Source: Burkholderiales bacterium
GTDB lineage: Bacteria; Pseudomonadota; Gammaproteobacteria; Burkholderiales; JBBRTU01
Assembly (NCBI GenBank): GCA_038244115.1
Contig: JBBRTU010000002.1
Span: 131,238 to 195,237, forward strand
DNA length: 64,000 nucleotides
Direction: 5' to 3'
The notes under the pieces were generated by a model. The model ran no database searches. It saw nothing but the letters and a program-made list of their open reading frames with translations, and was not told where the DNA came from. The position numbers and the translations under genes were made by a program. Of the stretch, positions 44,032 to 58,074 are shown one piece after another (positions within the stretch are counted from its first letter, which is position 1; each line of letters starts with the position of its first letter).

Positions 44032-45321
44032 CTAAATCGGTTCAAAGTCTGCGGCTATGGCGTCAGCGGTTGTAGCGTTCAAACCCGCTTTGTTGGCAAA
44101 TTTCAACCAGCTATCCAGGGCGGCGCGCACGTCCGCCAGCAAATCCAATGGGCGACGGACGCCAAAACGATCCGCTTCTATCAATAAATCGGCGCGCGTA
44201 ATCGCGCCGAACTTCCCGTTGACGTTCATCAGATGCTGATAAGTCCATTCCCCCCGGGGGTTGTAAGCATGCGTCACGTCGTAGGCCGGAGCCAGTTCCC
44301 ATGATCCGCCCTGCTTCAGGCGGAAAGCAGAATTCTTGGTGTGATCGTCACAGTTTTTTGCCATGACATTAAATGCCATGCGGCGGAAAGCTTGGCTGAT
44401 GGCTTCGTCTCCCAATTTGAGCTTGGCGATAACCATGAAAAGCTGGGCGTAGGCATGGGTGGCGCGTTGCTTGTAGTCAAGGTGATCCAGGGCGCAGAGT
44501 GTTTGCACGTGGTGCTTGATAGTGCCTTGGTCACGCGCTTCACGGTCGAAGCGGCGAGTCATGAAGTGAGCTCGGCCACCTTCTTCCAGCAACCGACAAG
44601 GTGACATGCTGATGCCGGCGGCAGTAGCCATCAGCTGGTAGGCGTATTCGATGCGGCCGTAATCCGCAGTGCCGCCCAATTCCAGGTCTTTGCCAATGCC
44701 ATCGAACTTGAGCAACCAATGCTCGAAGCCGGGGGCGGCATCGAACTGGCCGCTGCGAATCTGGTTTGTCTGCGGGTTCCAAGTGACGACTGCTTTCGCA
44801 CGCGCGCCACCCGCAGAGGTGCCGACCCGGATGACATTGGCGAGCGCTGCCTGCGCCTGCACGTCGCCGGACAGATCGCCATGAACCACTTTGCGCGCAG
44901 TTTCTACCAGCGTTTGCATCTCCAGCGGTTCGGCGCTTTCACGATGAGCGCCGCGTGCGGGTTTAAATTCCAGCGCGCCCATGCCACGCTTGCCCATGTA
45001 GGCGAGACGATCGAGCGTGGTGATGGCGCGTTTTTCGACCCCCTTGCGGGTCATCCAGGCATCGATTAGCGCATTGCCGAAGTCGTCGGGCAGCGCGTCG
45101 GCAAGCAATCCGGGCAGTCGTTTGAAGCTGGGTTCGGAAAGATCAGGAAAAGCAAAGGTGGGCTGGATATCATCCAGCGGCATAGTGAGCGGTGCCAATT
45201 CGATTCCGCTACGCCGCCAGGCGGGGTCGTAGGCAAACACATAACAGCCCAGGCGCGGATCTGGCGCCACGGCGCCAACACGCTTACCCCAGATGCGCAC
45301 TTCAATGACTGGGGTATCCAT
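44032..45321 (-). CDS. hipA: Type II toxin HipA-family Ser/Thr kinase
   Basis: 429-aa ORF with a typical HipA N-terminal coupling domain (IWGKRVGAV...) and a kinase core with NCDDHTKNSAF (catalytic loop D.H.KN). Confidence 0.9.
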   Translation of the reverse strand: MDTPVIEVRIWGKRVGAVAPDPRLGCYVFAYDPAWRRSGIELAPLTMPLDDIQPTFAFPDLSEPSFKRLPGLLADALPDDFGNALIDAWMTRKGVEKRAITTLDRLAYMGKRGMGALEFKPARGAHRESAEPLEMQTLVETARKVVHGDLSGDVQAQAALANVIRVGTSAGGARAKAVVTWNPQTNQIRSGQFDAAPGFEHWLLKFDGIGKDLELGGTADYGRIEYAYQLMATAAGISMSPCRLLEEGGRAHFMTRRFDREARDQGTIKHHVQTLCALDHLDYKQRATHAYAQLFMVIAKLKLGDEAISQAFRRMAFNVMAKNCDDHTKNSAFRLKQGGSWELAPAYDVTHAYNPRGEWTYQHLMNVNGKFGAITRADLLIEADRFGVRRPLDLLADVRAALDSWLKFANKAGLNATTADAIAADFEPI

Positions 45322-45913: not shown

Positions 45914-47377
45914 TCACAGCATTTTCAGATATTCAATCAAGGCCTCCTTATCAGTAGCAGGCAGCGTGGTGCCGTATTCATGCCCCCGGTTGCTGTTACC
46001 TTTGCGGCTTGCGTCCTGCTTGGAGCCTACGCGTTGCGCATCCTCACCCTGCACGATGAAGCCGGCATTCACCTGGTCGTACACGTCATAACCACGGTAG
46101 AACACGCTGGGCCGTTCGGCGGCTGGCGTCAATAGATCGCGTAGCGTCGGCACCGAACCATTGTGCAGGTAGGGCGCACGCAGCCAGATGCCGTCGAGAA
46201 AGGGGATGAGGTAACCGGTCAGGGTTTCCTCCACCAGCCCCTTGCGTTCCAGCCCCATGTCGCGCACCGTCTTGTTGGCGGCAATGGCGGCGGACTTGTT
46301 CCACGAATCCAGGCGACCTCTGTCGGTGCCGATCTCGGCTAGCAGCATGCGTGTGCCGGTACGCGCGCTAGCGTGGCAACTGGCGCAGTGCTGGTCGAAC
46401 ACCGTCTTGCCCTGCGCCGCTTTGTGCTTATCCAGCGCAAACGGATACTTCGGCGCGGGTTCTTTCAACAAATACTCGTGCAACCACTTTACCTGGCCGA
46501 GAAACGCTTGCTTGTCGTGCGGCGCGGCGCCGAGCACGCCGAGCGCAGAATCCATAATGACGGAATAAGCGTCGTGGCTATCGCCAGCCAGATTCATGAA
46601 CATGCCTTGTTCCGCTTTGTACTTTTGCAGGTTCCATACCGATGGCATGTCTGTCGGACCGAAGGTGTCGTCCATCGGTGCCTTGATCATGAAGTACTTG
46701 GTGAGGTTCATCGCGTCATCGCGCCCGCGCCCCCAGTCGGGAAAGTCCTTGCGGTAGATCCAGGCGAACTGCGCTTCGCGCTCGAGCAATCTCTTTTTTG
46801 TCATGGGGATGATGAGGTAGCGGTAGGCCAATTTGTCGATCCAGTCGAGATCGGTCACCAGCGCAATTTCGGCCATTATGTTGTCGGCATTAAAGCGCGG
46901 ATCGCGCGCACAGTCGACCAGGTAGCGGAAAAATGCCTGGACGTTGGTGGTGTGCCCCGGGCCGGCCACCACGTAAGTTGGCTGCTCATCCGGCTTCGAG
47001 CGGTAGCTTGCGGTGTGACACACAGCGCAATTATTACCCACACGCGGGAAGCCGATAACCTTTTTGGTGAATCCTACCGGCAGCTCCTGGCCCGGTTCCC
47101 ATGGCACACCGAGCGAAGCGTAGCCACCCGGCCCCGGCAGTTTTTCCGGGAACATGCGCGGCAGTACGTAGAAAATCCAGTAAGGAATGCCGGCATCGAA
47201 CTCGGCGCCGATGGAGCCGTATTTGAAACGCATCTCGGGGGTGGCCGTCACCCAGTCAGGCTGCGCCTCCTCGCGAAAAAACTTGTACCAGCCGACAAAG
47301 GCGCCCACCATGCCGAGCACCAGCAGCGCAATGCCGAACGCACGCAACAGCCGGCAATTTTTCATCAAGCAAGCCAT
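45914..47377 (-). CDS. Membrane-anchored di-haem c-type cytochrome, CCP/MauG-like C-terminal signature (paralogue A)
   Basis: 487-aa ORF with an N-terminal TM anchor and two CxxCH sites (CAVCH, CASCH). Motifs LRAPYLHNGSVPTLRDLL and a C-terminal GHEYGTTLPATDKEALIEYLKML. RBS gggga precedes the ATG. Confidence 0.75.
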   Translation of the reverse strand: MACLMKNCRLLRAFGIALLVLGMVGAFVGWYKFFREEAQPDWVTATPEMRFKYGSIGAEFDAGIPYWIFYVLPRMFPEKLPGPGGYASLGVPWEPGQELPVGFTKKVIGFPRVGNNCAVCHTASYRSKPDEQPTYVVAGPGHTTNVQAFFRYLVDCARDPRFNADNIMAEIALVTDLDWIDKLAYRYLIIPMTKKRLLEREAQFAWIYRKDFPDWGRGRDDAMNLTKYFMIKAPMDDTFGPTDMPSVWNLQKYKAEQGMFMNLAGDSHDAYSVIMDSALGVLGAAPHDKQAFLGQVKWLHEYLLKEPAPKYPFALDKHKAAQGKTVFDQHCASCHASARTGTRMLLAEIGTDRGRLDSWNKSAAIAANKTVRDMGLERKGLVEETLTGYLIPFLDGIWLRAPYLHNGSVPTLRDLLTPAAERPSVFYRGYDVYDQVNAGFIVQGEDAQRVGSKQDASRKGNSNRGHEYGTTLPATDKEALIEYLKML

Positions 47378-47386
47378 GCTTTTCCC

Positions 47387-48862
47387 CTAGAAAGTTTTCA
47401 TATATTCGATGAGTGCTGCCTTGTCTTCCGGCGGCAGTGTGGTGCCGAAACGCGGGCCATCGTGGCCCTGATTGCCGTTGCCGGACAGTCTGGTGTCATA
47501 GCGGAAATATTTGCGCGCGCCTTCCTCTGCGACAGTGGAAACGAAGCCCATGCGAACGGCGTCGTACACGTCGTATCCCCGGTAAAATATTTTTGGCCGC
47601 CTGTCTGCGGGTTCGAGTAGATCGGCCAGGGTCGGCACCGAACCATTGTGCAGATAGGGCGCGCGCAGCCACAATCCATCCAGCGGCGCATTGGCGTAAC
47701 CCCAGGTTTTACGGAAGTGGCTGAAGCGCTCGTCGCCATAGCCGGCATACACCGTGGCCTGGTTCAGCGCGAGGTCGGGCGTGTAGGAATCCAGGCGCCA
47801 ACGGTCCGTGCCGATGTCAAGAATCGGCGTGACCTTGCCCACGTATTCCCCGCTGAAGTTGCTGCCATTCACACCGTGGCATGCAGCGCAGTATTGTTGA
47901 TACACACCTTTTCCGCGCGCCGCTCGGTTCTGGTCGATGGGATAAGGCCAGGGCGGCGGGGTGGCAGTGGCCAGCCAGGCTTCCACGCGCTTGAGATTAT
48001 GGCGATCCAGCGTGGGCGGCGTGGTGCCGGCGCCCAACGCAGCGCTGTGATTGCGCTCCTCCAGCTTGTCATTATTGCCGTCCCAATGCAGTTGCATGCC
48101 ACGCTTCTTGGCCTGATTCCAGATGGCGGGGAAATCTGCCGTGCCGATCAGTTCGTGCGGGTCGGCGCGGTGCCAGGGCATGTTGAACAACGCCTTGGCC
48201 GAGTTGAAAGTATCCACCCTACCCGGCCCCCACTCGGGTTGACCATCGATAAAGGAGAAGCGCTCACGCAGCATCATCAGTTGTTCGCGCATGAGCAAAG
48301 TTGCCAGCGGGTAGACCAGGTAATGGTCGATCAGGTCGAGTTTGCCGCCGGTCTTTTCGATGGCGGGAATCATATATTCGCGCGAGAAACGCTTGTCGGC
48401 GGCACACTGAAAGAAAAATTTCTCGAAGCGCATCAGATCGAAAGAATTAGCCGGCATACCGGCGACAATGCGTGGCGTGGATGCTGGCGTGTCGCGCACG
48501 GTGTTAACGTGGCAAACCGCGCAATTGAGGAACACCCGATTCATGCCTTGATAGCGGCGCTGGGAAGTACCAATGGGAAGGTCGCGACCTTTTTCGTAGA
48601 TCATGCCGAGTGAAGCATAACCCTTGCCCGGCAGCAGATCCGGGCACACCTCAGGCAGCGCTTTCCAGATGCGGTAGGGGAAACCGGAGACGCGCTCGCC
48701 ACCCAGAGAGCCATACTGGAAGTGCTGTACCGGATCGCGGTATTCCACGGGGGAATCGCCGGAGAAGCGCCAAGCCAGGTACAGCACCAGCAGCAGGCCG
48801 ATACCCGCCAGGAAAAAAAGCGCGGTGCATATACATCCGCGCAGAGTGCAAAGTCGAGACAT
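47387..48862 (-). CDS. Membrane-anchored di-haem c-type cytochrome (paralogue B)
   Basis: 491-aa ORF colinear with paralogue A, with CAVCH and CAACH sites. Motifs LRAPYLHNGSVPTLADLL and GHDGPRFGTTLPPEDKAALIEYMKTF. Confidence 0.75.
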   Translation of the reverse strand: MSRLCTLRGCICTALFFLAGIGLLLVLYLAWRFSGDSPVEYRDPVQHFQYGSLGGERVSGFPYRIWKALPEVCPDLLPGKGYASLGMIYEKGRDLPIGTSQRRYQGMNRVFLNCAVCHVNTVRDTPASTPRIVAGMPANSFDLMRFEKFFFQCAADKRFSREYMIPAIEKTGGKLDLIDHYLVYPLATLLMREQLMMLRERFSFIDGQPEWGPGRVDTFNSAKALFNMPWHRADPHELIGTADFPAIWNQAKKRGMQLHWDGNNDKLEERNHSAALGAGTTPPTLDRHNLKRVEAWLATATPPPWPYPIDQNRAARGKGVYQQYCAACHGVNGSNFSGEYVGKVTPILDIGTDRWRLDSYTPDLALNQATVYAGYGDERFSHFRKTWGYANAPLDGLWLRAPYLHNGSVPTLADLLEPADRRPKIFYRGYDVYDAVRMGFVSTVAEEGARKYFRYDTRLSGNGNQGHDGPRFGTTLPPEDKAALIEYMKTF

Positions 48863-50877
48863 TACGTTCCTCCATGCGCCGGGAGACAGGGCGCAAGCGT
48901 GTCGAATGGACGTGCCAGTACACCGGGCGCATGTGCCCCCAGCAGCAATCCAGCATGTTGTTTGAGTTTGGCGAGCGCAGTGCCGTGTGTCCAGGCATCA
49001 ATAGAAATGCCGCGCATCTGCAATACAGTGGCGGGCGGCATCGGGGTGCGTTCCCGCGCCGCCTCGTCCACTCTCCACATCGACAGGCGGTAGTAGATGC
49101 GCTCGGCGCAGTGTGAAAGCTGGGTCTGCACCTGCGCTTCTTCGCCATGTAAAAAATTAGGCGGGAACGCTTCCTGGGTGTCATGGCAGAGACCACAGTG
49201 GGCGCGGAATTCCGTCACTATGTTGCTGGCATGGCCCGCGCTGGGTGCAATGTCAGTCTGCGCTGACGAATATTTTTGTGCCGCTGCTGCGTGGTGTGGA
49301 ATGCCCACGCCCGCAAACAAAGCGGGTACCAGTGCCGCGTGCCGAATCGGCCCCGCAAGCGCCTCGGCTCGGCTGCGCACCATGGCATCGAGCGTGGAAT
49401 CCACCACGCCGAATTCGTCGCGCAGTTGCAGCGTGGCGTGAGCGCCGGTTGGCGTAATCTGCACATCGATGGCGATCACGCGCTGTGCGGACACGCTGCG
49501 CACATTGCGCCCGTCGCGTCGCAAGCCGAAATGCAATGCACCTGCATGCGCTGTTCCTGCCATCACCTCGACAGTGGCCAGCGCGGGCTGACCGGGCAGT
49601 TCCAGTGCATCGAGCGTGCCGCGCACTACTCGACCAGCGCGCACGAACACGCGTCCGCGCAGGCCGAATCCTGCCGCATCCTTCGGCTGGCAGTTGAGTG
49701 AAAACCGATTTTCAGAATCTGTATTTCGTTGCTCCACCGCGCATTCAGCGGCGAGGTTGCGGGTACTTTCTGCCTGGCGCGACAGAGCGGCGTCCAGGCT
49801 GGCGATATCGCGCGCACTGAAAAAATCCGCCACGCCACTTACCAGATTCGCGGCGGCGGTATCCACGTCCCATACAGCCATCGGCGGACGCTGGCGCAGC
49901 GGGTCTGACTCAGCCGTGATGGCGCTGGTCAGCGGATTGCGATTGGGAATATGCGCGTCGGGAATAGCCAAGCCGCCGTGCCAACGTGAAAGAAAAGCAC
50001 TGTGCAGGGTAGGGAGCACGATCTCACGCCACGCCGCCGAGTCATGTTCGAAGTCGAGGCCGCCTGAGAGTCGATATTGCAGCGCGAGTTTAACGGCGGC
50101 AGCGCGGCAGCGCACTGCCTCTGGCGTGGCGCCACCGCACGCTTCGCGCCATAGAAACTGGTATACGTTAAGCAGGCTGGCACGACTGGTGGCGTCATCC
50201 ACCGCGCTGGGTATGTCTACACCGATGTCCAGTGGCGCGCCATAGAAGTCGCGGTGAGTAGCCTTGAGACGCTGGCGCACGCCATCGTTGGCAGCGGTTT
50301 CGTCCCATAGCGGGCGAGAAAAAACCGGTGCCGCGTTCTGATGGCAGGCCAGGCAAAGACCGCGCTGGGCATACACCACACGCGGCGCGGCGCCGGGCCG
50401 GTAATTACGTACTACTTGATATTCGAAGCGGCCTGCCTCTTCGTTGTAACTGATGGCCTCGATCACGCCGGCCTTCTCGTGATAGCCGAGATAAATGCGA
50501 TCGCGCAGCAATGGCTCACCCGCGCGCGACTCTCCATCCACCGCCACTACCAGCCGCGGATATCTGAAGAAATCCGGCGCAGCGGCATTGCGCACCAATG
50601 AGCGCCCCATGGGGATGAGTACCTGGCGCACCGGATCTGTGCTGCCAGATTCCATGTGCATACGCAGTTGTGCCACCACGCTGGAAAAGGGGAAGGGCAG
50701 GCGATAGCTACCGTTAGCCGTGTACAGTTCATCGAACAGCGAACGACCCCTTGGCGGCAGATCCGGGCCGGGCCTACCGGGATCAATGGCCCACACCGGC
50801 GGCGTAGACGTCATGCCCTCAGCCATGGCTGGCGCCGTGAAAAATAACAGGGTCATGATCCACGCCACACGCGTCAT
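48862..50877 (-). CDS. Secreted 671-aa di-haem c-type cytochrome of unrecognised family
   Basis: Start at the internal Met (MTRVAWIMTLLFFTAPAMAEG signal peptide), whose ATG overlaps the upstream stop (ATGA). CLACH lies in the N-terminal third and CGLCH near the C-terminus. Confidence 0.7.
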   Translation of the reverse strand: MTRVAWIMTLLFFTAPAMAEGMTSTPPVWAIDPGRPGPDLPPRGRSLFDELYTANGSYRLPFPFSSVVAQLRMHMESGSTDPVRQVLIPMGRSLVRNAAAPDFFRYPRLVVAVDGESRAGEPLLRDRIYLGYHEKAGVIEAISYNEEAGRFEYQVVRNYRPGAAPRVVYAQRGLCLACHQNAAPVFSRPLWDETAANDGVRQRLKATHRDFYGAPLDIGVDIPSAVDDATSRASLLNVYQFLWREACGGATPEAVRCRAAAVKLALQYRLSGGLDFEHDSAAWREIVLPTLHSAFLSRWHGGLAIPDAHIPNRNPLTSAITAESDPLRQRPPMAVWDVDTAAANLVSGVADFFSARDIASLDAALSRQAESTRNLAAECAVEQRNTDSENRFSLNCQPKDAAGFGLRGRVFVRAGRVVRGTLDALELPGQPALATVEVMAGTAHAGALHFGLRRDGRNVRSVSAQRVIAIDVQITPTGAHATLQLRDEFGVVDSTLDAMVRSRAEALAGPIRHAALVPALFAGVGIPHHAAAAQKYSSAQTDIAPSAGHASNIVTEFRAHCGLCHDTQEAFPPNFLHGEEAQVQTQLSHCAERIYYRLSMWRVDEAARERTPMPPATVLQMRGISIDAWTHGTALAKLKQHAGLLLGAHAPGVLARPFDTLAPCLPAHGGT

Positions 50878-51746
50878 TCTGCCTTGGCAACGACATGCTG
50901 CTGCGTGCCGCTCCAGCAATCCTCGGGAGTCTGTCCAGCGCGGAATGCCTTGCGCCCGGCATTGTCGAGCGCTTTGCTATAGAGCGTGAAGTTGAGCAGG
51001 AAGGCGCGATCGGTATATGCCCGCCCCAGGTAGAAGCCGGGCCGTATCATGCGGATATCATCGCGCACCTGGAGGCCGCGACGACCCGCCAGAAAATCGG
51101 GGCGCTCGTGGTAGCCGGGCAAGTCATCGGAGAAAGCGTAGTCGATGATAATGGACTCGCGCCGTCCGTCGAGCAGGCTCTGGCCGCAGTAGAGTTTGGC
51201 CGGAAACAGCAGCCAGGCGTCGCGTCCATCCACGCTGATTTTTTGCAGTGATGCTGGGTTATCGATGATGGGTTTTAGAAGCGCCAAGTCGTCGATGCGG
51301 TTGCGCAGCACGCGTTGATCCCGGTAAAACACTTTGCCTTTCCATAGGGTTTCGCCGGCCATATCGAGCTTGCGCACGCCGAGCTGTGCGGTTAGGCCGG
51401 AAAGCCCGCCAAGGATCTCTGCTGCGCGGAATTTGCCCGAAGAACCTTTGGGGAACTGGATTTTTCCATCGAACGGCCCGTCCGGAATCGGTCCGGCGGT
51501 AAGCCGTGCGTAGACTTGGTCAAGCTGCTCCTGATCCAACGTGGCAAGATATTCGGGGGTGATTCTCTCCAGCTCCTTGGCGGGGATGGGGAAGCGGTGC
51601 TCCACCTCGGCGAGATCCATCTTGCTGGAATAAGCCTCTGCATAAGGCGCGAACTTGATTTCCGGTTTGGGTTTGAACATTGCTGCAATCTGGTCACACC
51701 CGGATAGCATAATGAGGAGCATGGTCACAATAAGCGCGCGTTTCAT
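50874..51746 (-). CDS. Lipoprotein of unknown function
   Basis: 290-aa ORF with lipobox LLIMLSGC and RBS gggaga. I recognise no family. Confidence 0.65.
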   Translation of the reverse strand: MKRALIVTMLLIMLSGCDQIAAMFKPKPEIKFAPYAEAYSSKMDLAEVEHRFPIPAKELERITPEYLATLDQEQLDQVYARLTAGPIPDGPFDGKIQFPKGSSGKFRAAEILGGLSGLTAQLGVRKLDMAGETLWKGKVFYRDQRVLRNRIDDLALLKPIIDNPASLQKISVDGRDAWLLFPAKLYCGQSLLDGRRESIIIDYAFSDDLPGYHERPDFLAGRRGLQVRDDIRMIRPGFYLGRAYTDRAFLLNFTLYSKALDNAGRKAFRAGQTPEDCWSGTQQHVVAKAE

Positions 51747-51866
51747 GGAGTTTCTCCCTTGGGCGATAAGTTTTTGGTGTCTGCCATGGTGGTTTCCTCG
51801 AAGCTGAAAATGGTAGTTGGGCGTGGTGGGGTAAGCGGGGGCGCTTGTGTTTTTGCCGTGGATGCT

Positions 51867-51886
51867 GCTGCGCGGCGCCGCGCAGC
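51867..51886. repeat. Perfect 20-bp GC-rich palindrome in intergenic spacer
   Basis: gctgcgcggc|gccgcgcagc, read directly. It lies in the 225-bp gap between the 846-aa cytochrome gene and the lipoprotein gene. Confidence 0.8.
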
Positions 51887-51971
51887 TCGGCTGCAGACAC
51901 TGGGTAAACCTCGCGGCGCTGGAGCAAGTTTTGCGTTTCGCTTCATGTCAGTTCCTGGAATGCCGTTCGAA

Positions 51972-54512
51972 CTAAAGCGTCGCGAGGAAGGCAATCAAAG
52001 CCTTCTTATCGGTATCACTCAAGTCCTGGCCGAAACGGTGTCCGTCGTTTTCCACGTCTGCGGTGCAAGAGCTGTAAACCTCCAGCAGCAGCGGCAGCCG
52101 TTCCTTTGCTGCTTTCACCGCCGTGAGCAATTGCGCTGGATCGTTGACAATAGCGCTGGCGATAGTCTTCATTTCCTGCGCCACCTTGTGTCCGTTGTCC
52201 GGGCCAAGCTGCTTGACCAGCCTGGCTTCCAGCACTTCCGGCTGGGTCTTGGCCTGCACTAAATCCACGATAAATGGCTTGTGCTGGAAATTGCCGAGTA
52301 GCCCGGCGTTGGTGCCTGCCGGTATGCGCAGCGTGAAGCCGAAGAGTTTTTTCTCCTCATGACCATCCCATACTTTTGGCCCCAGATCGAGCACGATGTC
52401 CTGGTCCAACTTGGTGATCTTGGGGATGCGTCGCTCCGGATAAAGCAATTCCTGCATCGACGCCTTGTACAACTTATAACGCCCTTCCACACTGGGATCG
52501 TAAGCCCAGCATCCCGGCTGTTTGTCGCTGGGGAGCAATTGCTTGGTCTGCGCATCGACATAGGACGGTCGGTAAAAATCATACGGCTGACCGGTGCCCC
52601 AGCCGCATATCTCCGGGCCTAGCGCGTTGTTATGCATGAATGGCGCGTGCGCCCACAGATTCAGCAGCGAAATATTGCGGTACTGACCGCGGCCACCACC
52701 GTTTTTCTCGGGGATGCCATTGTCGGCTGGCAACGCATGATGGGTAACCGAAGCGAATTCGTCCCACACGTGGCCGGTCATGTGGTTGGAGTGCAATGCT
52801 CGGCAACGGAAGGTGCCGACTTCGGAAGCGGGGGTATGTTTGTCATTGCCGAGCCAGTCTGCGCGCAGACCGGTTTCCTTGGACACGGCATAAAAATCTT
52901 CTTTGCCGGGCTGGCTGGAATGACAACGCGCGCAATTCGCCGCGAACACCCCACGGCCACGGCTGACTGCGCCCTTGTCATATTCGTGTTCCAGATCGGC
53001 AACCAGATCGTCATGGCTGTAGCGCGCCTGCGGATTTTTTTGCTTGAGCATGTTCTCTCGCGCAATGGAAAGATCGGTGGCAGTTGCCTCCTTGGAAGTG
53101 AGGAAGGCGAGGATGTCGGGTAGCCGATCCTCAATCGCACGGAAGTTGGGGCAATCGCGTCGGCACTGGCCAATGCTGAAGGGCGTCTGGCCGAAATTGC
53201 GCGCCTTGGGATCGAGTTGCCTCAGGTCGGTGAGGTGATTCACCCAGCATTGTTCGGAGCACGACCCAATATTAAAGTACACGCGCTGGATAGCACCAAG
53301 CGCGCCAATGGAATCACCGCCATCCTTGAGAATGTGGTGCACGGCTTCTTCCTTTTCGCCACGCTGCCAACACTTGCCCGGTTTGCCAGGCTCACACCAA
53401 CACGCCGTGTCGGGTTCGTCGGCAGCGCAGGAAGCCGTTTTGCGCCAGGCGATGACGCGTTCGCCGGGGTGGGTCGGACGCTGCAGAATGTTAATCAGCG
53501 CGTTCATGGTGCCGGGGTTATTGATCTGGTCAGTGGGCACCGCCGAGGTGTCGCTGGTGCCGGGGCGGGCATGCGCGAAGACCTGCCATTCCAGCGAATC
53601 GCGCGGCATACCGGAAACCATGATTTCCGAAATGTGCGAGTATTGATTACCGATTGCGCCCTTCAGATTTTCCCATCCGGGATGCGCCGGATCTGCCGGC
53701 GGATTGGCAGGATCAAAGGCGATATGACAGGTGCCGCACGCCATGCCAATGCGGAACGGCGGTTGAATCGAGCCATCGACTAGCTTGCTGACTTTGGAAT
53801 CGGACAGCTCCGGATTGACGGAGAGCTTGCGGTTGTAACCTTCCCAGGTACCGAGCTTGCCACCGTTCAGCTGCTTCCATGCTGCGGCGTTGAACAATGG
53901 GTTGGGGAATTTACGCAGCCCCATGATCCCGCTGGAGGTGCCGAATGCCAGGTCGCAAGATGATTGCCTTTGACTTGCATGGCGATCCTTGGGATCAGCC
54001 GGTGCGTCTTTGAAGTCGCAAGCTGCGTCGCGGTAGCCGCTCTTGCCGACGAATTTCAGCAGCTTGTCATCACCCGGACACCAGTCCAAACCGTAAGTCT
54101 CTTCAGGACTTTTTGCGGGACAGTTGGGTGAACCGGGTCGACAGCAGCCGGGGTCGTTGATCATGCCCCAGGTCTTGAAGCGCTCGTCGCGCTTGTCCGT
54201 GCGCAACACACCAAACCAGTCGATCATGACGCCAATGCGTTGCTGAAATACATAAGTATGGAAGCGCTCGTTGCCGGCGGTGGCTTTGTACCAAATCTCC
54301 CGTCCGGCGCGCGCAGAGGGAGTAAGGTCGGCTGCCGCTTGATAAAAACCCGCCTCACTATAATCGCTGCTCACGACCGGCGGGGGTGCTGGCTGCGCAG
54401 CAGCAACTGTCACTTCACGCGCAGCGGGTTGGCCGGTCGGCTGGGCAGCAATGCCGGTTGAAACTCCGAACCCAAAAAACACCAGCGCAGCAATAATCTT
54501 GCCAATTCTCAT
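51972..54512 (-). CDS. Secreted Cys-rich 846-aa di-haem c-type cytochrome, distant paralogue of A/B
   Basis: Signal peptide, then CGTCH and CARCH sites. LWAHAPFMHNNALG and a C-terminal GHRFGQDLSDTDKKALIAFLATL parallel paralogues A and B. More than 20 additional cysteines. Confidence 0.75.
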   Translation of the reverse strand: MRIGKIIAALVFFGFGVSTGIAAQPTGQPAAREVTVAAAQPAPPPVVSSDYSEAGFYQAAADLTPSARAGREIWYKATAGNERFHTYVFQQRIGVMIDWFGVLRTDKRDERFKTWGMINDPGCCRPGSPNCPAKSPEETYGLDWCPGDDKLLKFVGKSGYRDAACDFKDAPADPKDRHASQRQSSCDLAFGTSSGIMGLRKFPNPLFNAAAWKQLNGGKLGTWEGYNRKLSVNPELSDSKVSKLVDGSIQPPFRIGMACGTCHIAFDPANPPADPAHPGWENLKGAIGNQYSHISEIMVSGMPRDSLEWQVFAHARPGTSDTSAVPTDQINNPGTMNALINILQRPTHPGERVIAWRKTASCAADEPDTACWCEPGKPGKCWQRGEKEEAVHHILKDGGDSIGALGAIQRVYFNIGSCSEQCWVNHLTDLRQLDPKARNFGQTPFSIGQCRRDCPNFRAIEDRLPDILAFLTSKEATATDLSIARENMLKQKNPQARYSHDDLVADLEHEYDKGAVSRGRGVFAANCARCHSSQPGKEDFYAVSKETGLRADWLGNDKHTPASEVGTFRCRALHSNHMTGHVWDEFASVTHHALPADNGIPEKNGGGRGQYRNISLLNLWAHAPFMHNNALGPEICGWGTGQPYDFYRPSYVDAQTKQLLPSDKQPGCWAYDPSVEGRYKLYKASMQELLYPERRIPKITKLDQDIVLDLGPKVWDGHEEKKLFGFTLRIPAGTNAGLLGNFQHKPFIVDLVQAKTQPEVLEARLVKQLGPDNGHKVAQEMKTIASAIVNDPAQLLTAVKAAKERLPLLLEVYSSCTADVENDGHRFGQDLSDTDKKALIAFLATL

Positions 54513-54605
54513 ATCGTTTTCTCCAATTAAGTGTAGTGATTAGTGCTGCCTTGGTTGCCTTAATCAGTATAGACAAGGCAAAAAAAAGTAAAGGTGGCGA
54601 CAAAT

Positions 54606-57590
54606 TTATTTGATGTGGCCAGCCACCTCCCTCACCCACTGGTCACAACTTGATGCCCCGTTACCTTTCCAGTAACCATTTCCAAATAACTCTTCGCCGG
54701 TTAGCAAACCCAGCTGCCGGTAACTTTCAAATTGCGGCTCGTCGAACCACTGGTCAGATGTTGGCTGGTGCGGAAAATCCTGGTGTGTGGTCGCACAATG
54801 ACGCACGTCTATTGGTTCATTGCCGCACAGCAGGGGCTTGACGTAGACCAGGACGCCTTTTTTTCCCGATGCATATTTTATGCGCCCGATAACAAAACGG
54901 ATGCGCGCTTTCGGCTCCTGTTCCAACATCGGTGCCACATCAATGTCTATTTCCGCGCCCATATCTATGCGGCAATTGAGCACCGCGTTTCCCAGGTCTT
55001 CAAATTCGAAGTCAGCGTCACAGCCCCCGTCGCACACCACAATCAACTTGCATTCCCGCCGCACCAATTCGTACAGGCCCAAATTTTCAAAATGGCCGCC
55101 ATCGGAAAGATTAATAAATTGGCTTTGATCGTCCGTGCTGCAGAGCAGTTCTTTCAGTAAGCACCCCAATCCGAACGTGGGGCTGGACAACCTCCTTGCA
55201 TTTTCATATTTTGGATTGCCGCACCACCGTCCCAGCCGGACATTGAAAAAAGTCATGATAAAAGCCAGTGGCGGCGACGTATGGTAGCCTTGATTAGGGC
55301 TTGCCGCCGCGCCGGAAACGGCTATCGCCGTACCCAGCTTGGCGCCTTCCGTAGCCTCTTTCCCCCACCCTTCCTTGCTCATGTATTCCCTGGTTTCACA
55401 GTAGGCTTGCTGCTTATCTGTCAACCTATAACCGCAATGCCTGGGTGAAAAAATGAACGAGCCGCTTAGCCTTTGCTGCCATTCCAAATGTCCTTCCTCG
55501 TTGCCAGCACTAACGGTTTGAGGATTGCTTCCCTTAGTCAAATTCAGCGCGGCATTCACTAAATGAACGGGCCGCTGATTCTCTAATCTGGACATTGGCA
55601 AATCATCGTTGGGATCAAAATCGGTGAAGGCATCACCGCGCCGCACAGGGTTGGAAGCACCGAGGTAACAGCGGGTCAAGCGGTTGCGGTAAAACTGGTG
55701 CATTGAAAACAGATTAATGTCGACCCGAAAAGCCAGAAAAATGCCTACCAGCAGAGAAATCACCATCGCTCCGGGGATGGCATATTCATACTTCGCCCAA
55801 ACCTTCTGTTCCTCAACATAGGTCGCATCTGCGTAGGCTGAGAAATTGGTTGCCCGTTCAGCAAACCAGGTTTCAAGTTTGAAGTTCCGCTCGTCATCGG
55901 CATTATTCTCCATTTGCAATTCATAACGCCTGTGCAGAGGCGTTGCGGTGCCCGATTTAGCCTGGGCTGTCGCAATCACCGGCTGTATTCCCGCGTACTT
56001 CATAAGGCCCTTGTGCGTCCCGACGGACAACAATACGAGCAGCCCGACAATGAACACGTAGGGCGTAATTTTTGCCAAGACCTCCAACCATTTATTGGCG
56101 CACTTGCCGCCCGTTTTTTCGCTGCGCGCTAACAGAACTCCGGCAGTGGAGGATGCCAGCCATGCAATACCGCCGCTGTATGCAAGCCAGGCGCCAAGAT
56201 AATTCCACATTGCCGCACCATAAAACGACACCAGACATAGTCCCGTCCAGGCGAGCTGAATTGCGATAACCAGGCCACCAATACGGCCCAGCCATTCCCG
56301 GCCCTCTTCGCTAAAGTGCCGTTTGCCGATACCAATATGTATCACCAGTCCGAGGCTGAGAATTTGAAACACCGCCGCAGTACCTAAGCCGAAAAGCATC
56401 CAGCTAATATGCTTCACGTCCACCATCATTCCCACCAACTTGGCGCAGCCATAAAGCATCAGCCCCATCGCCGCACCAGGGATTGTCGGAAATAGAAACA
56501 AAAACCAGCGTCGCCACCATTTCCCATCGGGCGAGGCGGCTCCTTCTCCCTTATGTGACTTGGCTAGCCTGGTACGAGCAATTAACCAACCCAGTGACCA
56601 AACCGCACAGTAAATAATGGCACCCGTCGCAGCCCACCAAAGTGCGCCGCCTTCCAGATCGGTAAATTTTTCTTTTAGGGATACGAACTCGGCGGTCACA
56701 ATGAGTGAGGTTAAAAAACCGGGCAGCACCACTCTCATCAAAACCCAAAGACCGTTCGGGCAGCATTTGTCCTTATCATTGTCCTTGTTGCCGTTTCCCT
56801 GCGTGCTACTGGCCAAGGTATTCAACCCTCTTGCAACGCTGGTCGCGGCAAAGATCAACAGGAACGCCAAGGCAACGAAGATCCAGCTACATTCCAGTGA
56901 CCTAATATGAGCCGTCGTATCAGGCGACACAGGAATACCCAAATATGTCAGGCTCGCCAACATGTACTGGCCGAGCCGGGGCGGGGCTTCCCAGAGGGGA
57001 AGCAGCATAAGAGGAAACAGCAACAAGGCCGTTAGCAAGGAAAGCAATATGGCTTGGTTCAGCAACAAATTGCGGGATATATTTGCGACTGCCGCTAGCG
57101 TGTCCAGACTGAAGACACCGTATCGCGGCGTAAGATAATTGCTGTAACGGCGCAGCCAATTAATGGCATGGCCCTCGGGTTTTCTTGGCTCTTTTTCTGT
57201 CTCTGGCCGGGTCTGGATTTCAGCTTCCACCGCTTTGATGGCTAGAGCAATAGACTTCTCTGGTTCTTCCTTTTCAAGCGGATTGATCAACGCTTCGGCT
57301 TTCCTGTTCAGCAGCGCAGAAAACCATCCGCCGATATACCCACCCCCCGAAACTGTGGAGAGGTAATCAATACGCCGCAATAGTCTTTTATTTGCCATTG
57401 CCTGCAGGATGCCGAGATTGAAGGTGGCGCTTCGAATCCCACCACCAGAAAATGCCAGTCCGAATAGCGCGAGGTCCTGACCACCATCGGCTGGGCGCTT
57501 TCCATCCACAGCATCGCGGCAATGACGGATTACCGCCTTTTCACACTCAAAAACTTCCGCCCACATTGGTGCTATTGAATCTTCCGTCAT
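54606..57590 (-). CDS. Patatin-like phospholipase with a large polytopic membrane insertion
   Basis: 994-aa ORF with oxyanion motif FSGGGIRSA (aa 48-55), nucleophile elbow TVSGGG (Ser81) and Asp motif LSDGGHFENLG (Asp about 830). Roughly 10 hydrophobic helices lie between them. RBS ggggaga. Confidence 0.8.
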   Translation of the reverse strand: MTEDSIAPMWAEVFECEKAVIRHCRDAVDGKRPADGGQDLALFGLAFSGGGIRSATFNLGILQAMANKRLLRRIDYLSTVSGGGYIGGWFSALLNRKAEALINPLEKEEPEKSIALAIKAVEAEIQTRPETEKEPRKPEGHAINWLRRYSNYLTPRYGVFSLDTLAAVANISRNLLLNQAILLSLLTALLLFPLMLLPLWEAPPRLGQYMLASLTYLGIPVSPDTTAHIRSLECSWIFVALAFLLIFAATSVARGLNTLASSTQGNGNKDNDKDKCCPNGLWVLMRVVLPGFLTSLIVTAEFVSLKEKFTDLEGGALWWAATGAIIYCAVWSLGWLIARTRLAKSHKGEGAASPDGKWWRRWFLFLFPTIPGAAMGLMLYGCAKLVGMMVDVKHISWMLFGLGTAAVFQILSLGLVIHIGIGKRHFSEEGREWLGRIGGLVIAIQLAWTGLCLVSFYGAAMWNYLGAWLAYSGGIAWLASSTAGVLLARSEKTGGKCANKWLEVLAKITPYVFIVGLLVLLSVGTHKGLMKYAGIQPVIATAQAKSGTATPLHRRYELQMENNADDERNFKLETWFAERATNFSAYADATYVEEQKVWAKYEYAIPGAMVISLLVGIFLAFRVDINLFSMHQFYRNRLTRCYLGASNPVRRGDAFTDFDPNDDLPMSRLENQRPVHLVNAALNLTKGSNPQTVSAGNEEGHLEWQQRLSGSFIFSPRHCGYRLTDKQQAYCETREYMSKEGWGKEATEGAKLGTAIAVSGAAASPNQGYHTSPPLAFIMTFFNVRLGRWCGNPKYENARRLSSPTFGLGCLLKELLCSTDDQSQFINLSDGGHFENLGLYELVRRECKLIVVCDGGCDADFEFEDLGNAVLNCRIDMGAEIDIDVAPMLEQEPKARIRFVIGRIKYASGKKGVLVYVKPLLCGNEPIDVRHCATTHQDFPHQPTSDQWFDEPQFESYRQLGLLTGEELFGNGYWKGNGASSCDQWVREVAGHIK

Positions 57591-58074
57591 CTATATCTCC
57601 CCGAGGCAATAACTAGCCAGTTCTTTGGCTGCTCTCAAGCGTTTCTTCAATAGTCTGGATTCGAGGGGGTAAAACTGCTGTTTCAGATTGCGCCTGAACT
57701 TGGCGCAAAAAGGGGCGTAGGGGTTTACAGCCATTCCAGCATCCTCCAGTTAAAATTAAGCAAATCAACGCAGGCGATTTTAGGTTCCTGCGAGTACCCC
57801 AATGAACCGCCAGCGACATGGCAAATTTATTCGACAGGGCCTTGCGCGAATATAGTTATAGCATATGTATTTTGCATTTAACAAAGTTTTTTTGTTAATC
57901 ATTTTTATCAGGCAGGGATCTCGGGCTATGCACAACTTCCGCAGTTTGTTTCTAAGCGTCACCTCACTGTTTCAAACAGGCGGGATTAAACATTTTTGAG
58001 ATCCATTCCACGATACGTTTTACTGCCTATGGAATTGCGGGTAAAATCACTTCCCTTCCCAAAAAAAACAGAAC

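Follow-up and report, generated by a model that had tools for sequence, protein, structure and literature searches.

A widespread bacterial protein family in which a predicted membrane domain appears to split a patatin/cPLA2-type catalytic domain

Introduction

To our knowledge, lipases of the patatin and cPLA2 folds have been described as soluble or peripherally tethered enzymes, which are recruited via C2 domains, ubiquitin, cyclic nucleotides or beta-barrel anchors. Canonical patatin/PNPLA proteins (potato Pat17, E. coli RssA and YjjU; PF01734) share an oxyanion motif, a nucleophile elbow and an Asp block of the form DG[GA] with the protein described here, whereas their Ser and Asp are roughly 140-210 aa apart, instead of 749, and a Gly occupies the first position of GxSxG, where Thr is found here. 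The cPLA2 enzymes (GIVA, 1CJY; GIVD, 5IZ5) likewise have in common with it a GGGxR motif with Arg and a Ser-Asp dyad. In 1999, Dessen reportedly described that the Ser and the Asp of cPLA2 are separated by a sizeable insertion of ~180 aa, the cap. The cap, however, is a soluble helical lid placed just before the Asp, in an enzyme that is itself soluble and is recruited to the membrane by a C2 domain and calcium, whereas the insert of the present family is a predicted polytopic membrane domain located ~200 aa upstream of the Asp.

Permanent residence in a membrane is known from other phospholipases. PlaF and OMPLA (PldA) reside permanently in a membrane, and their activity must be kept in check to prevent self-damage; the analogy to the present family is functional only and does not extend to the fold, PlaF being an alpha/beta hydrolase with a single membrane helix and OMPLA a beta-barrel of the outer membrane. 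Within the patatins, NTE/PNPLA6 and the mycobacterial MFS-cNMP-patatin fusions carry a membrane module beside an intact catalytic domain. The same holds for PlpD, a type Vd protein with a POTRA domain and a beta-barrel, in which the membrane module stands beside an uninterrupted catalytic domain (PMC11116518). All these proteins combine a patatin domain and a membrane-embedded module in one chain, as does the family described here, but in the latter the module lies inside the catalytic domain and not adjacent to it. Type Vd features (POTRA, 16-strand beta-barrel) were not detected by Pfam in the 994-aa protein, whose membrane part is helical. CapV, as outlined in PMC12480259, is a patatin-fold phospholipase that attacks the inner membrane of its producer from the cytoplasm. 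It differs in being soluble, in its activation by a cyclic nucleotide and in belonging to a CD-NTase operon. Nothing of this kind was seen for the split patatin; no cyclase-like neighbour was present in the window or in the loci examined.

Unsplit bacterial patatin-like lipoproteins carry, in the same order as the split family, SGGGxR, S-x-V-S-G-G, PRY..FF, an xVILNG strand, DGGxF[DE]NLG and then an IVV.D strand. They differ in having a contiguous domain, with ~210 aa from Ser to Asp, full Pfam Patatin coverage and no membrane domain. Unlike the split family, they also carry a lipoprotein signal (LTGC lipobox), which implies that they work outside the cytoplasm. A literature search returned neither a description of the split architecture nor a characterisation of it, although its coverage was incomplete and the absence is thus no proof. 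Here we analyse a gene from a Burkholderiales bacterium, located in a stretch of 64,000 nucleotides (the window), whose product probably positions the active site of a phospholipase close against the inner side of the cell membrane.

Results

The whole gene (54606..57590 in the ORF listing, on the minus strand like all features given below) encodes 994 aa that we read as a patatin/cPLA2-type hydrolase with an inserted membrane domain. It starts with an ATG preceded by a ribosome-binding-like site, GGGGAG, and no signal peptide is found at the N-terminus of the protein. A protein that is 99% identical (P0001) is encoded on an independent JGI metagenome contig. The 994-aa protein matched no NCBIfam model and, among PDB sequences, gave only chance antibody matches. 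A 47-aa ORF that abuts the start codon was examined as a possible partner but not retained as a conserved component, as it has no counterpart upstream of the homologs in 82 loci.

The N-terminal catalytic piece (aa 38-160; 57111..57479) consists of a strand, GGGIR, a helix, a strand, TVSGG and three helices, and it ends in 'LTPRYGVF'. It is recognized by Pfam Patatin (PF01734) with an E-value of 4.5e-7 and 30.7 bits against a gathering cut-off of 27.7, over profile positions 1-70 of 191 only. Motif search and homolog alignment place the oxyanion-hole motif GGGIR at aa 49-53 (57432..57446) and the nucleophile elbow TVSGG at aa 79-83 (57342..57356), with Ser81 at nt 57348-57350. The catalytic Asp block, DGG at aa 830-832 (55095..55103), is contained in the invariant 'SDGGHFENLG'; it was located by motif search, aligns with the DGG of unsplit patatins and follows a strand at aa 825-829 of the AlphaFold2 model. 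These are the positions that a first-pass annotation of the DNA had given for GGGxR, the Ser and the Asp motif (near aa 830), and the separation of the dyad, which it had put at about 750 aa, measures 749 aa. Two further conserved stretches lie in the C-terminal part: 'SGAAASP' (aa 759-765; 55296..55316), in which G760, A761, A762 and P765 are invariant among homologs and which may correspond to patatin block III (A-S-x-x-x-P, reportedly described by Banerji and Flieger 2004), and the nearly invariant family signature 'FPHQPTSDQWFDEPQFESYRQLG' (aa 939-961; 54708..54776), as judged by homolog conservation.

Conservation was evaluated in 93 homologs with 36-50% identity to the 994-aa protein. 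Arg53 is found in all 93, D830-G-G-H-F is equally invariant, and both G49-G51 of the oxyanion motif and Ser81 are retained in 92/93. The distance between Ser and Asp ranges from 618 to 760 aa in this set and from 584 to 889 aa in 232 members of the family, for which the modal number of hydrophobic peaks is 10. The Thr that had been remarked upon at the first position of GxSxG, normally occupied by Gly, is Thr79, present in 90/93 homologs; it is a family-wide subfamily trait and no local mutation. Unsplit relatives that pass Pfam Patatin from end to end carry S-V-S-G-G, so that a variant first Gly is tolerated in the superfamily. The same conservation bears on the idea that the patatin motifs are relics and that the protein works mainly as a transporter or scaffold, or as an acyl transferase rather than a lipid hydrolase. 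Some patatin-fold enzymes are indeed transacylases, and the membrane domain, which makes up 47% of the protein, has conserved polar positions of its own (E432, R424, R431, H417). Yet all the catalytic elements are invariant or almost so, which on sequence grounds would argue for retained catalysis, and neither Pfam, nor Foldseek, nor a comparison of the family profile with solved structures linked the membrane domain significantly to a transporter family; we thus regard such a loss or change of function as very unlikely.

The inserted membrane domain (aa 161-627; 55710..57110) contains ~10 hydrophobic helices, as derived from Kyte-Doolittle hydropathy and from AlphaFold2 helices, while its limits are taken from a global hhalign alignment to an unsplit relative. 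Hydropathy gives nine segments (~173-203, 228-257, 280-305, 319-338, 362-390, 395-423, 436-460, 501-530 and 601-631) and a weaker one at 464-487, in agreement with the ten or so that had been proposed; together they extend over aa 173-631. The helices of the model run over 162-201, 223-263, 280-304, 315-345, 358-388, 395-425, 428-489, 500-533 and 604-622. The even helix count rests on hydropathy and charge bias because DSSP on the model joins hydrophobic segments 7 and 8 into a single helical run of 62 residues (428-489). In particular, the family medians of K+R are 3, 5, 2, 3 and 5 in the even loops and the stretch after TM10, and 1, 0, 0, 0 and 3 in the odd loops, giving totals of ~19 on the proposed inside and 4 outside; the flanks of TM1 and TM10 are Arg-rich. 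This clear positive-inside pattern across the ~10 segments supports the earlier view that the hydrophobic stretch is made of transmembrane helices. The best-conserved part of the domain is the K/R-rich loop 6-7, 'IHIGIGKRHFSEEGREWLGRIG' (aa 417-438; 56277..56342), predicted to be cytoplasmic, with G420 and E432 as invariant residues. Neither a significant Pfam match nor a confident Foldseek match was obtained for the membrane domain; hits to transporters and to nitric oxide reductase, with probabilities of 0.35 or less, were rejected as helix-bundle noise.

By these counts, the N- and C-terminal soluble pieces would both be cytoplasmic, as would loop 4-5, whereas loop 9-10 would lie outside. 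The opposite arrangement would have a periplasmic catalytic domain whose substrates are lipids in transit or those of the inner membrane's outer leaflet, with fused PG_binding_1 domains binding the cell wall. In several homologs, PG_binding_1 and PG_binding_2 do immediately precede the catalytic piece on its N-terminal side, and peptidoglycan-related genes recur as neighbours, but neither a signal peptide nor a membrane helix precedes the N-terminal region of 160-300 aa, the amidases encoded next door have no signal peptides either, and the charge bias strongly favours both termini inside. A periplasmic location of the catalytic domain is thus judged highly improbable. As an observation in its own right, the N-terminal PG_binding_1 fusions of some homologs are more readily made sense of in the periplasm and, to that extent, count against a cytoplasmic model.

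The C-terminal catalytic piece (aa 628-994; 54609..55709) holds most of the beta-sheet, with AlphaFold2 strands at 675-683, 709-732, 788-791, 825-829, 849-853, 880-883 and 899-917, together with the Asp block, and is modelled with confidence on its own (pLDDT 82). The full-length protein likewise gives a confident model as a single body, with a pLDDT of 85.7 (93-97 in the N piece, aa 41-100) and a pTM of 0.85, a value that by our own estimate would hardly be reached if the N piece were unplaced. Upon modelling of the full chain, pLDDT rises relative to the C piece alone at aa 640-649 (from 65 to 94), 770-789 (from 65/73 to 78/82) and 830-839 (from 68 to 77). Ser81 and Asp830 would probably lie close to one another in the folded protein. 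When the full model was compared with solved structures by Foldseek, only cPLA2 alpha (1cjy, 3.1e-4) fell at or below an E-value of 0.001, followed by cPLA2 delta (5iz5, 1.6e-3); both have a probability of 1.00, but low TM-scores of 0.28-0.33 on the target and an rmsd of 8-10 A, and the N piece probably accounts for the match. The family profile also reached cPLA2 delta among solved structures (E 0.009), in an alignment that spans GGGxR and the nucleophile. When the C-terminal domain was modelled alone, Foldseek against the PDB returned nothing significant, the best patatin being PlpD (E 0.87), and its profile had no match among PDB sequences. Pfam searches with six constructs (four with the insert removed, two fragments of the C piece) still assigned Patatin to the N piece only and left the fragments unmatched. 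Pfam PLA2_B (PF01735) has no match in the native protein; in the constructs lacking the insert it aligns over positions 2-52 of its 491, at a non-significant E of 0.12-0.22. The fold appears closer to the cPLA2-like branch than to potato patatin.

Comparison with unsplit relatives, of which 878 were found, some matching Pfam PLA2_B too, provides the insertion point. One of them, from Nitrospira (L034:4391-5830), covers Pfam Patatin positions 1-190 of 191 (E 3e-15) and shares GGGSR, S-V-S-G-G and DGGLFDNLG. With the insert removed, hhalign against the unsplit family matches the N piece at E 1e-11 and, collinearly, the Asp block at E 1.9e-3; a global alignment to the unsplit relative extends over 380 columns (E 6e-12). 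From this collinear alignment, the insertion can be placed between 'LTPRYGVF' (aa 153-160) and 'FSMHQFYRNRL' (aa 628-638), the junction 'LTPRYGVF|FSMH' corresponding to a contiguous 'LSPRYREFFSAY' in the unsplit relative. The Asp block was aligned to the DGG block of three independent unsplit patatins, including the Nitrospira relative and E. coli YjjU, with a modest statistical support of P about 1e-3: a profile of the C piece alone matches the Nitrospira relative there at E 1.3e-3, BLASTP against the same relative gives E 0.014, and local hhalign comparison to aa 825-855 ranks the YjjU block first (E 0.3). Together with the Pfam match of the N piece and the pTM of the model, these alignments support the suggestion made at first pass that the two ends of the protein form one patatin-type domain. 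In three Nitrospira loci, a gene for an unsplit patatin-like lipoprotein lies directly upstream of the split family member.

The survey of the family returned 10,808 clusters (50% identity) with the same layout at E <=1e-30, and at least 597 loci in species-representative genomes of many phyla, the latter found with a pattern that is part of the signature 'FPHQPTSDQWFDEPQFESYRQLG'. The architecture is thus very common among environmental bacteria, and its earlier description as unusual for a lipase holds among described enzymes but not in nature. The same survey bears on a mis-assembled or fused ORF, in which part of a patatin and a membrane protein would be joined to a C-terminal domain unrelated to them. 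Nothing speaks for this except that the layout is unusual and that Pfam covers the protein only in part. This explanation, scarcely credible, was rejected: the identical full-length layout occurs in thousands of independent assemblies across many phyla, the nearly identical copy P0001 lies on a separate contig, and conservation is unbroken across both junctions.

The distribution of the family is patchy, and 42 plasmid records carry a member; culturable carriers include Massilia, Rugamonas, Luteimonas and Methylobacter. Among 82 loci, the immediate same-strand neighbours include Amidase_2 (5), Lipase_3 (3), further patatins (3), SH3_3 (3), PG_binding_1 (2), Exo_endo_phos (2) and PLDc_2 (1). 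The amidase and lipase neighbours have no signal peptides, and in some cases their genes share 7 nt with that of the family member; overlapping Amidase_2 genes are found, for example, in the Azonexaceae or Thiobacillus loci L021 and L055. Homologs exist with an N-terminal PG_binding_1 domain, again without signal peptide, or with a Lipase_3 domain fused to them. On plasmids, a Rhizobium homolog is flanked by a phage-type lysozyme, a DUF2235 protein and an alpha/beta hydrolase, and a Burkholderia homolog by a peptidase C1, a metalloprotease and a second patatin. These neighbours and fusions (Amidase_2, PG_binding_1, Lipase_3, patatins, lysozyme) hint at envelope breakdown or remodelling. All of them, together with the patchy and plasmid-borne distribution, can be read as signs that the same enzyme might serve as a self-contained and regulated effector that disrupts membranes in autolysis, abortive infection or antagonism, degrading, once switched on, the inner membrane of its producer as CapV does in CBASS and, in some lineages, giving adjacent signal-less hydrolases access to peptidoglycan. 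On the other hand, the associated families are each confined to 2-6% of the loci, several of which belong to related lineages, and no conserved operon partner was found, the commonest neighbour being an 846-aa cytochrome in 7/72 loci. Most loci, including this window as well as L001 and L002, lie amid housekeeping genes without a conserved partner; the neighbours in the window are dusB, pur genes and cytochromes, with no lytic enzymes. PADLOC gave no significant match for the 994-aa protein (a chance Csm3 match at E 0.005), phage genomes gave no match and a viral structure library no significant one. Such an effector role is therefore considered unlikely.

Discussion

The explanation that we favour as probable is that a single polypeptide of the patatin/cPLA2 superfamily forms a membrane-integral Ser-Asp acyl hydrolase, in which a ~ten-helix insert splits the catalytic domain and which likely acts on inner-leaflet phospholipids. 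In this model, an insertion of ~467 residues would interrupt the catalytic domain after the helices that come behind the nucleophile elbow and ahead of the next core helix, so that the chain would enter the membrane from the cytoplasm and come back to it. The N piece, with GGGIR and Ser81, and the C piece, with SGAAASP and Asp830, would then pack as one globular domain that sits on the inner membrane at its cytoplasmic side. The enzyme would most likely take acyl chains off glycerophospholipids or lysophospholipids of the cytoplasmic leaflet, and the membrane domain would work as a permanent anchor and probably also as a cap or lipid-access element absent from soluble relatives; it may also have a regulatory role.

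A more speculative extension, which we hold to be distinctly unlikely, is that of a 'lipolytic holin': a phospholipase pre-installed in the inner membrane and silenced by its own membrane domain, which upon a signal would digest the membrane from within. The trigger might be membrane stress, or cell-wall fragments in the cytoplasm sensed via the fused PG_binding_1 domain, and the outcome might be cell death or the release of adjacent signal-less amidases, lysozymes and lipases. If true, this would represent a route to lysis or abortive infection that relies on neither phage holins nor nucleotide second messengers.

Returning to the membrane-integral hydrolase, a membrane module inside the catalytic domain would fix the active site at the bilayer. 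This raises the questions of what stops a permanently resident phospholipase from destroying its own membrane and of whether the membrane domain gates the access of lipids. The family also offers a clean natural case of a polytopic membrane domain inserted into the fold of a soluble enzyme. The recurrent links to cell-wall hydrolases and lipases provide testable leads. Finally, the family is large and spans many phyla of soil and freshwater bacteria, with no curated NCBIfam model and only partial Pfam coverage, thus representing a blind spot in bacterial lipid biology.

A patatin-type catalytic domain probably interrupted by a membrane domain

The target gene (54606..57590, minus strand) appears in the ORF listing with an ATG start and a length of 994 aa, and a ribosome-binding-like GGGGAG lies just ahead of it. 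The sequence motifs of its product sit exactly where the first-pass annotation placed them: the oxyanion motif GGGIR at aa 49-53, the nucleophile motif TVSGG with Ser81 at aa 79-83, and the Asp motif DGG at aa 830-832. Ser81 and the Asp are 749 residues apart, and the ten or so hydrophobic segments described between them are recovered by the Kyte-Doolittle scale as nine strong and one weaker segment between aa 173 and 631. Pfam Patatin matches the N-terminal piece only (profile positions 1-70 of 191, E 4.5e-7, 30.7 bits with a cut-off of 27.7 bits), and no NCBIfam model matches the protein. The target gene has a G+C content of 52.3%, versus 55.6% for the window, and its stretch (54001-58000) is among the two lowest, which may reflect membrane-protein codon content or horizontal acquisition. 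An assembly artefact was considered and excluded.

The spread of the insertion, which the first-pass annotation had left to a survey, proves to be that of a large conserved family. A word-indexed search gives more than 7,500 relatives among the matches listed. They are mostly 890-1,350 aa long, and those with a name go by 'patatin-like phospholipase family protein'. In addition, 10,808 cluster representatives match the family profile at E <= 1e-30 in an exhaustive search of 1.84 billion. Each of the best 150 profile-search matches covers the full length. Species-representative genomes contain at least 597 loci of the split family, in Beta-, Gamma- and Alphaproteobacteria, Acidobacteriota, Nitrospirota, Bacteroidota, Chlorobi, Verrucomicrobiota, Gemmatimonadota and Methylomirabilota. 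Members are also present in 42 plasmid records, for the most part very large replicons, and in none of the phage genomes searched.

Among 93 homologs at 36-50% identity, Arg53 and D830-G-G-H-F are invariant, Ser81 is kept in 92, and the Thr that replaces the first Gly of GxSxG, as previously pointed out, is found in 90. 'SGAAASP' (aa 759-765) is likewise invariant and resembles patatin block III, a likeness of motif and not an established alignment match. Across 232 members, Ser and Asp lie 584-889 aa apart and hydrophobic peaks most often number ten, so the split is the defining trait of the family. The best-supported reading is that of a predicted membrane-integral Ser81-Asp830 acyl hydrolase, in which Gly49-51 would form the oxyanion hole; Arg53 is presumably positioned like the phosphate-binding Arg reported for cPLA2 (Dessen 1999). 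That a protein with these conserved residues has instead a non-hydrolytic or transacylase role is very unlikely.

Relation of the two pieces to unsplit patatins

The two pieces had been proposed to form one split patatin domain, and several direct tests of this failed: a model of the isolated C-terminal domain (pLDDT 82) resembles no solved structure significantly, PlpD being the sole patatin among its matches (E 0.87); the Pfam Patatin match of insert-removed constructs still stops before the C piece; and a C-piece profile finds no match among PDB sequences. Useful evidence in favor of the proposal is the collinear alignment of the Asp block to an unsplit family. Three Nitrospira loci encode, directly upstream of the split gene, an unsplit lipoprotein patatin of about 480 aa (L029:4205-5836, L034:4391-5830 and L040:1357-2796). 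It carries GGGSR, S-V-S-G-G and DGGLFDNLG and is covered by Pfam Patatin throughout (profile positions 1-190 of 191, E 3e-15); the pair presumably combines an extracytoplasmic unsplit lipase with a cytoplasm-facing split one.

Upon profile-profile comparison of the split family with 39 members of this unsplit family, the N piece aligns with E 8.5e-11 to 1e-11 and, with the insert removed, the Asp block gives a second, collinear match (aa ~818-880 to template 289-357, E 1.9e-3). The Asp block also aligns when the split family is represented by a C-only profile (E 1.3e-3) and by single-sequence BLASTP (E 0.014), and the global alignment of the two families extends over 380 columns at 23% identity (E 6e-12). 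In local hhalign, aa 825-855 match the DGG block of E. coli YjjU best. As judged from alignment, the membrane domain (aa ~161-627) cleanly interrupts a short helical link within what is otherwise an ordinary patatin-type domain, since its flanks, 'LTPRYGVF' (aa 153-160) and 'FSMHQFYRNRL' (aa 628-638), jointly align to one uninterrupted stretch of the unsplit protein, 'LSPRYREFFSAYKTTMQSNF'.

Predicted structure and topology

The full-length AlphaFold2 model, built with 93 aligned sequences, is confident and has a mean pLDDT of 85.7 and a pTM of 0.85, with pLDDT 93-97 for aa 41-100 of the N piece and below 70 for about 14% of residues. By a rough estimate, such a pTM would be out of reach were the N piece unplaced relative to the rest. 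Parts of the C domain gain pLDDT in the full-length chain as compared to the C domain alone, namely aa 640-649 (from 65 to 94), aa 770-789 (from 65/73 to 78/82) and the Asp loop at aa 830-839 (from 68 to 77). When the full-length model is compared with the PDB by Foldseek, the two best matches are the human cPLA2 alpha (1cjy, E 3.1e-4) and delta (5iz5, E 1.6e-3) structures, above PlpD, ExoU, VipD and CapE, and the family profile matches the cPLA2 delta sequence at E 0.009 over GGGxR and the nucleophile.

No signal peptide was found in the target protein. In the ten-segment assignment, the family median of K+R is 3 in loop 2-3, 5 in loop 4-5, 2 in loop 6-7, 3 in loop 8-9 and 5 just after TM10; it is 1 in loop 1-2, 0 in each of loops 3-4, 5-6 and 7-8, and 3 in the 46-residue loop 9-10. 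By the positive-inside rule, these counts put the N piece and the C domain on the predicted cytoplasmic side, together with the conserved loop 6-7 ('HIGxxKRxFSExxREWWxRLGG'); the opposite orientation, with the catalytic part facing the periplasm, is highly improbable. DSSP on the AlphaFold2 model merges segments 7 and 8 into one helical stretch (428-489). For the catalytic pieces to meet, the number of helices must be even; the charge pattern supports an even count, as does a family-consensus Pro near the predicted 7-8 turn.

Genomic context

The target gene has a divergent dusB/purH/purD/purE block on one side and a same-strand gene run downstream (45914-54512, minus strand). In particular, a di-haem cytochrome c of 846 aa with a signal peptide (51972-54512) begins 93 nt downstream, with no terminator-like site found in between, and is followed by ORFs of 290 and 685 aa without family match and by two paralogous RoxA/di-haem cytochrome c peroxidase-like proteins (47387-48862 and 45914-47377), all on the minus strand. 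Cytochromes of the 846-aa type are the commonest neighbour, yet at only 7 of 72 loci, in Proteobacteria and Acidobacteriota and on either side of the split patatin. A 47-aa ORF (MAVNPYAPFCAKFRRNLKQQ...; 57591-57734, minus strand) has its own GGAGG site and a TAG that abuts the target ATG; the gene calls of a near-identical JGI contig include it as well, and no counterpart was found upstream of homologs elsewhere. A HipA-family toxin kinase gene (HipA_C and Couple_hipA; 44032-45321, minus strand) lies ~9 kb from the target.

Most split-family loci have unrelated housekeeping surroundings. Among 82 loci, the Pfam families that recur in immediate same-strand neighbours include Amidase_2 (5 loci), Lipase_3, Patatin, SH3_3 and DUF4097 (3 each), PG_binding_1 and Exo_endo_phos (2 each) and PLDc_2 (1). 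The Amidase_2 genes, encoding N-acetylmuramoyl-L-alanine amidases, lie immediately upstream (L021:1881-2717, L055:5142-5978, L071:4938-5768, L006:2612-3415 and L019:3641-4450). Signal peptides are absent from the amidase and lipase neighbours. Some of these genes share 7 nt with the split gene, including two of the five amidase genes, which overlap its start. Longer homologs carry a PG_binding_1 domain without signal peptide or a class-3 lipase (Lipase_3) domain ahead of the N catalytic piece (at the N-terminus in P0035, P0072, P0074 and P0103; aa 97-236 in P0040), and a fused PG_binding_1 is predicted to fall on the cytoplasmic side. About a third of members have a C-terminal extension of at least 300 aa without Pfam match (~300 aa in P0029, P0035, P0043, P0044, P0065, P0072 and P0103), with the conserved stretches 'HPDNRGWMNLFRHWSW' and 'YFRIQDHLRRMGLGR', the latter of which looks like an acetyltransferase-type R-x-x-G-x-G motif. 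On two plasmids, homologs are found within clusters of degradative enzymes: one homolog lies amid a phage-type lysozyme, a DUF2235 protein and an alpha/beta hydrolase (L085, Rhizobium leguminosarum), another with a peptidase C1, a metalloprotease, a second, unsplit patatin and a cNMP-binding LuxR-type regulator (L086, Burkholderia sp. SFA1).

Taken one by one, these associations are weak, at 2-6% of loci and in some cases from related lineages, and they point consistently to enzymes of membrane-lipid and cell-wall breakdown. A regulated self-lysis or defence effector can be considered in this context; PADLOC gives no significant match for the target, and such a role is unlikely.

Relation to known systems and proposed function

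By its motifs, the target belongs to the patatin/cPLA2 superfamily and would work like its lipases; whole-domain profile tests of the superfamily failed or matched in part, and it is a member of none of the cPLA2 (PLA2_B), CapV and PlpD families. PlpD keeps its catalytic domain intact beside a membrane module, as do NTE and the mycobacterial MFS fusions, in which patatin is joined to a membrane module, whereas in the target the membrane module is predicted to lie inside the catalytic domain. A literature search of incomplete coverage found no paper on a patatin split by a membrane domain. Databases already list the family sequences by a generic name, and their architecture and biology appear unexamined.

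All in all, the acyl hydrolase predicted here would act on the cytoplasmic face, cutting acyl chains off inner-leaflet phospholipids or lysophospholipids. The membrane insert would be well placed to control the lateral entry of lipids, since it would take the place of the lid/cap region of soluble relatives.
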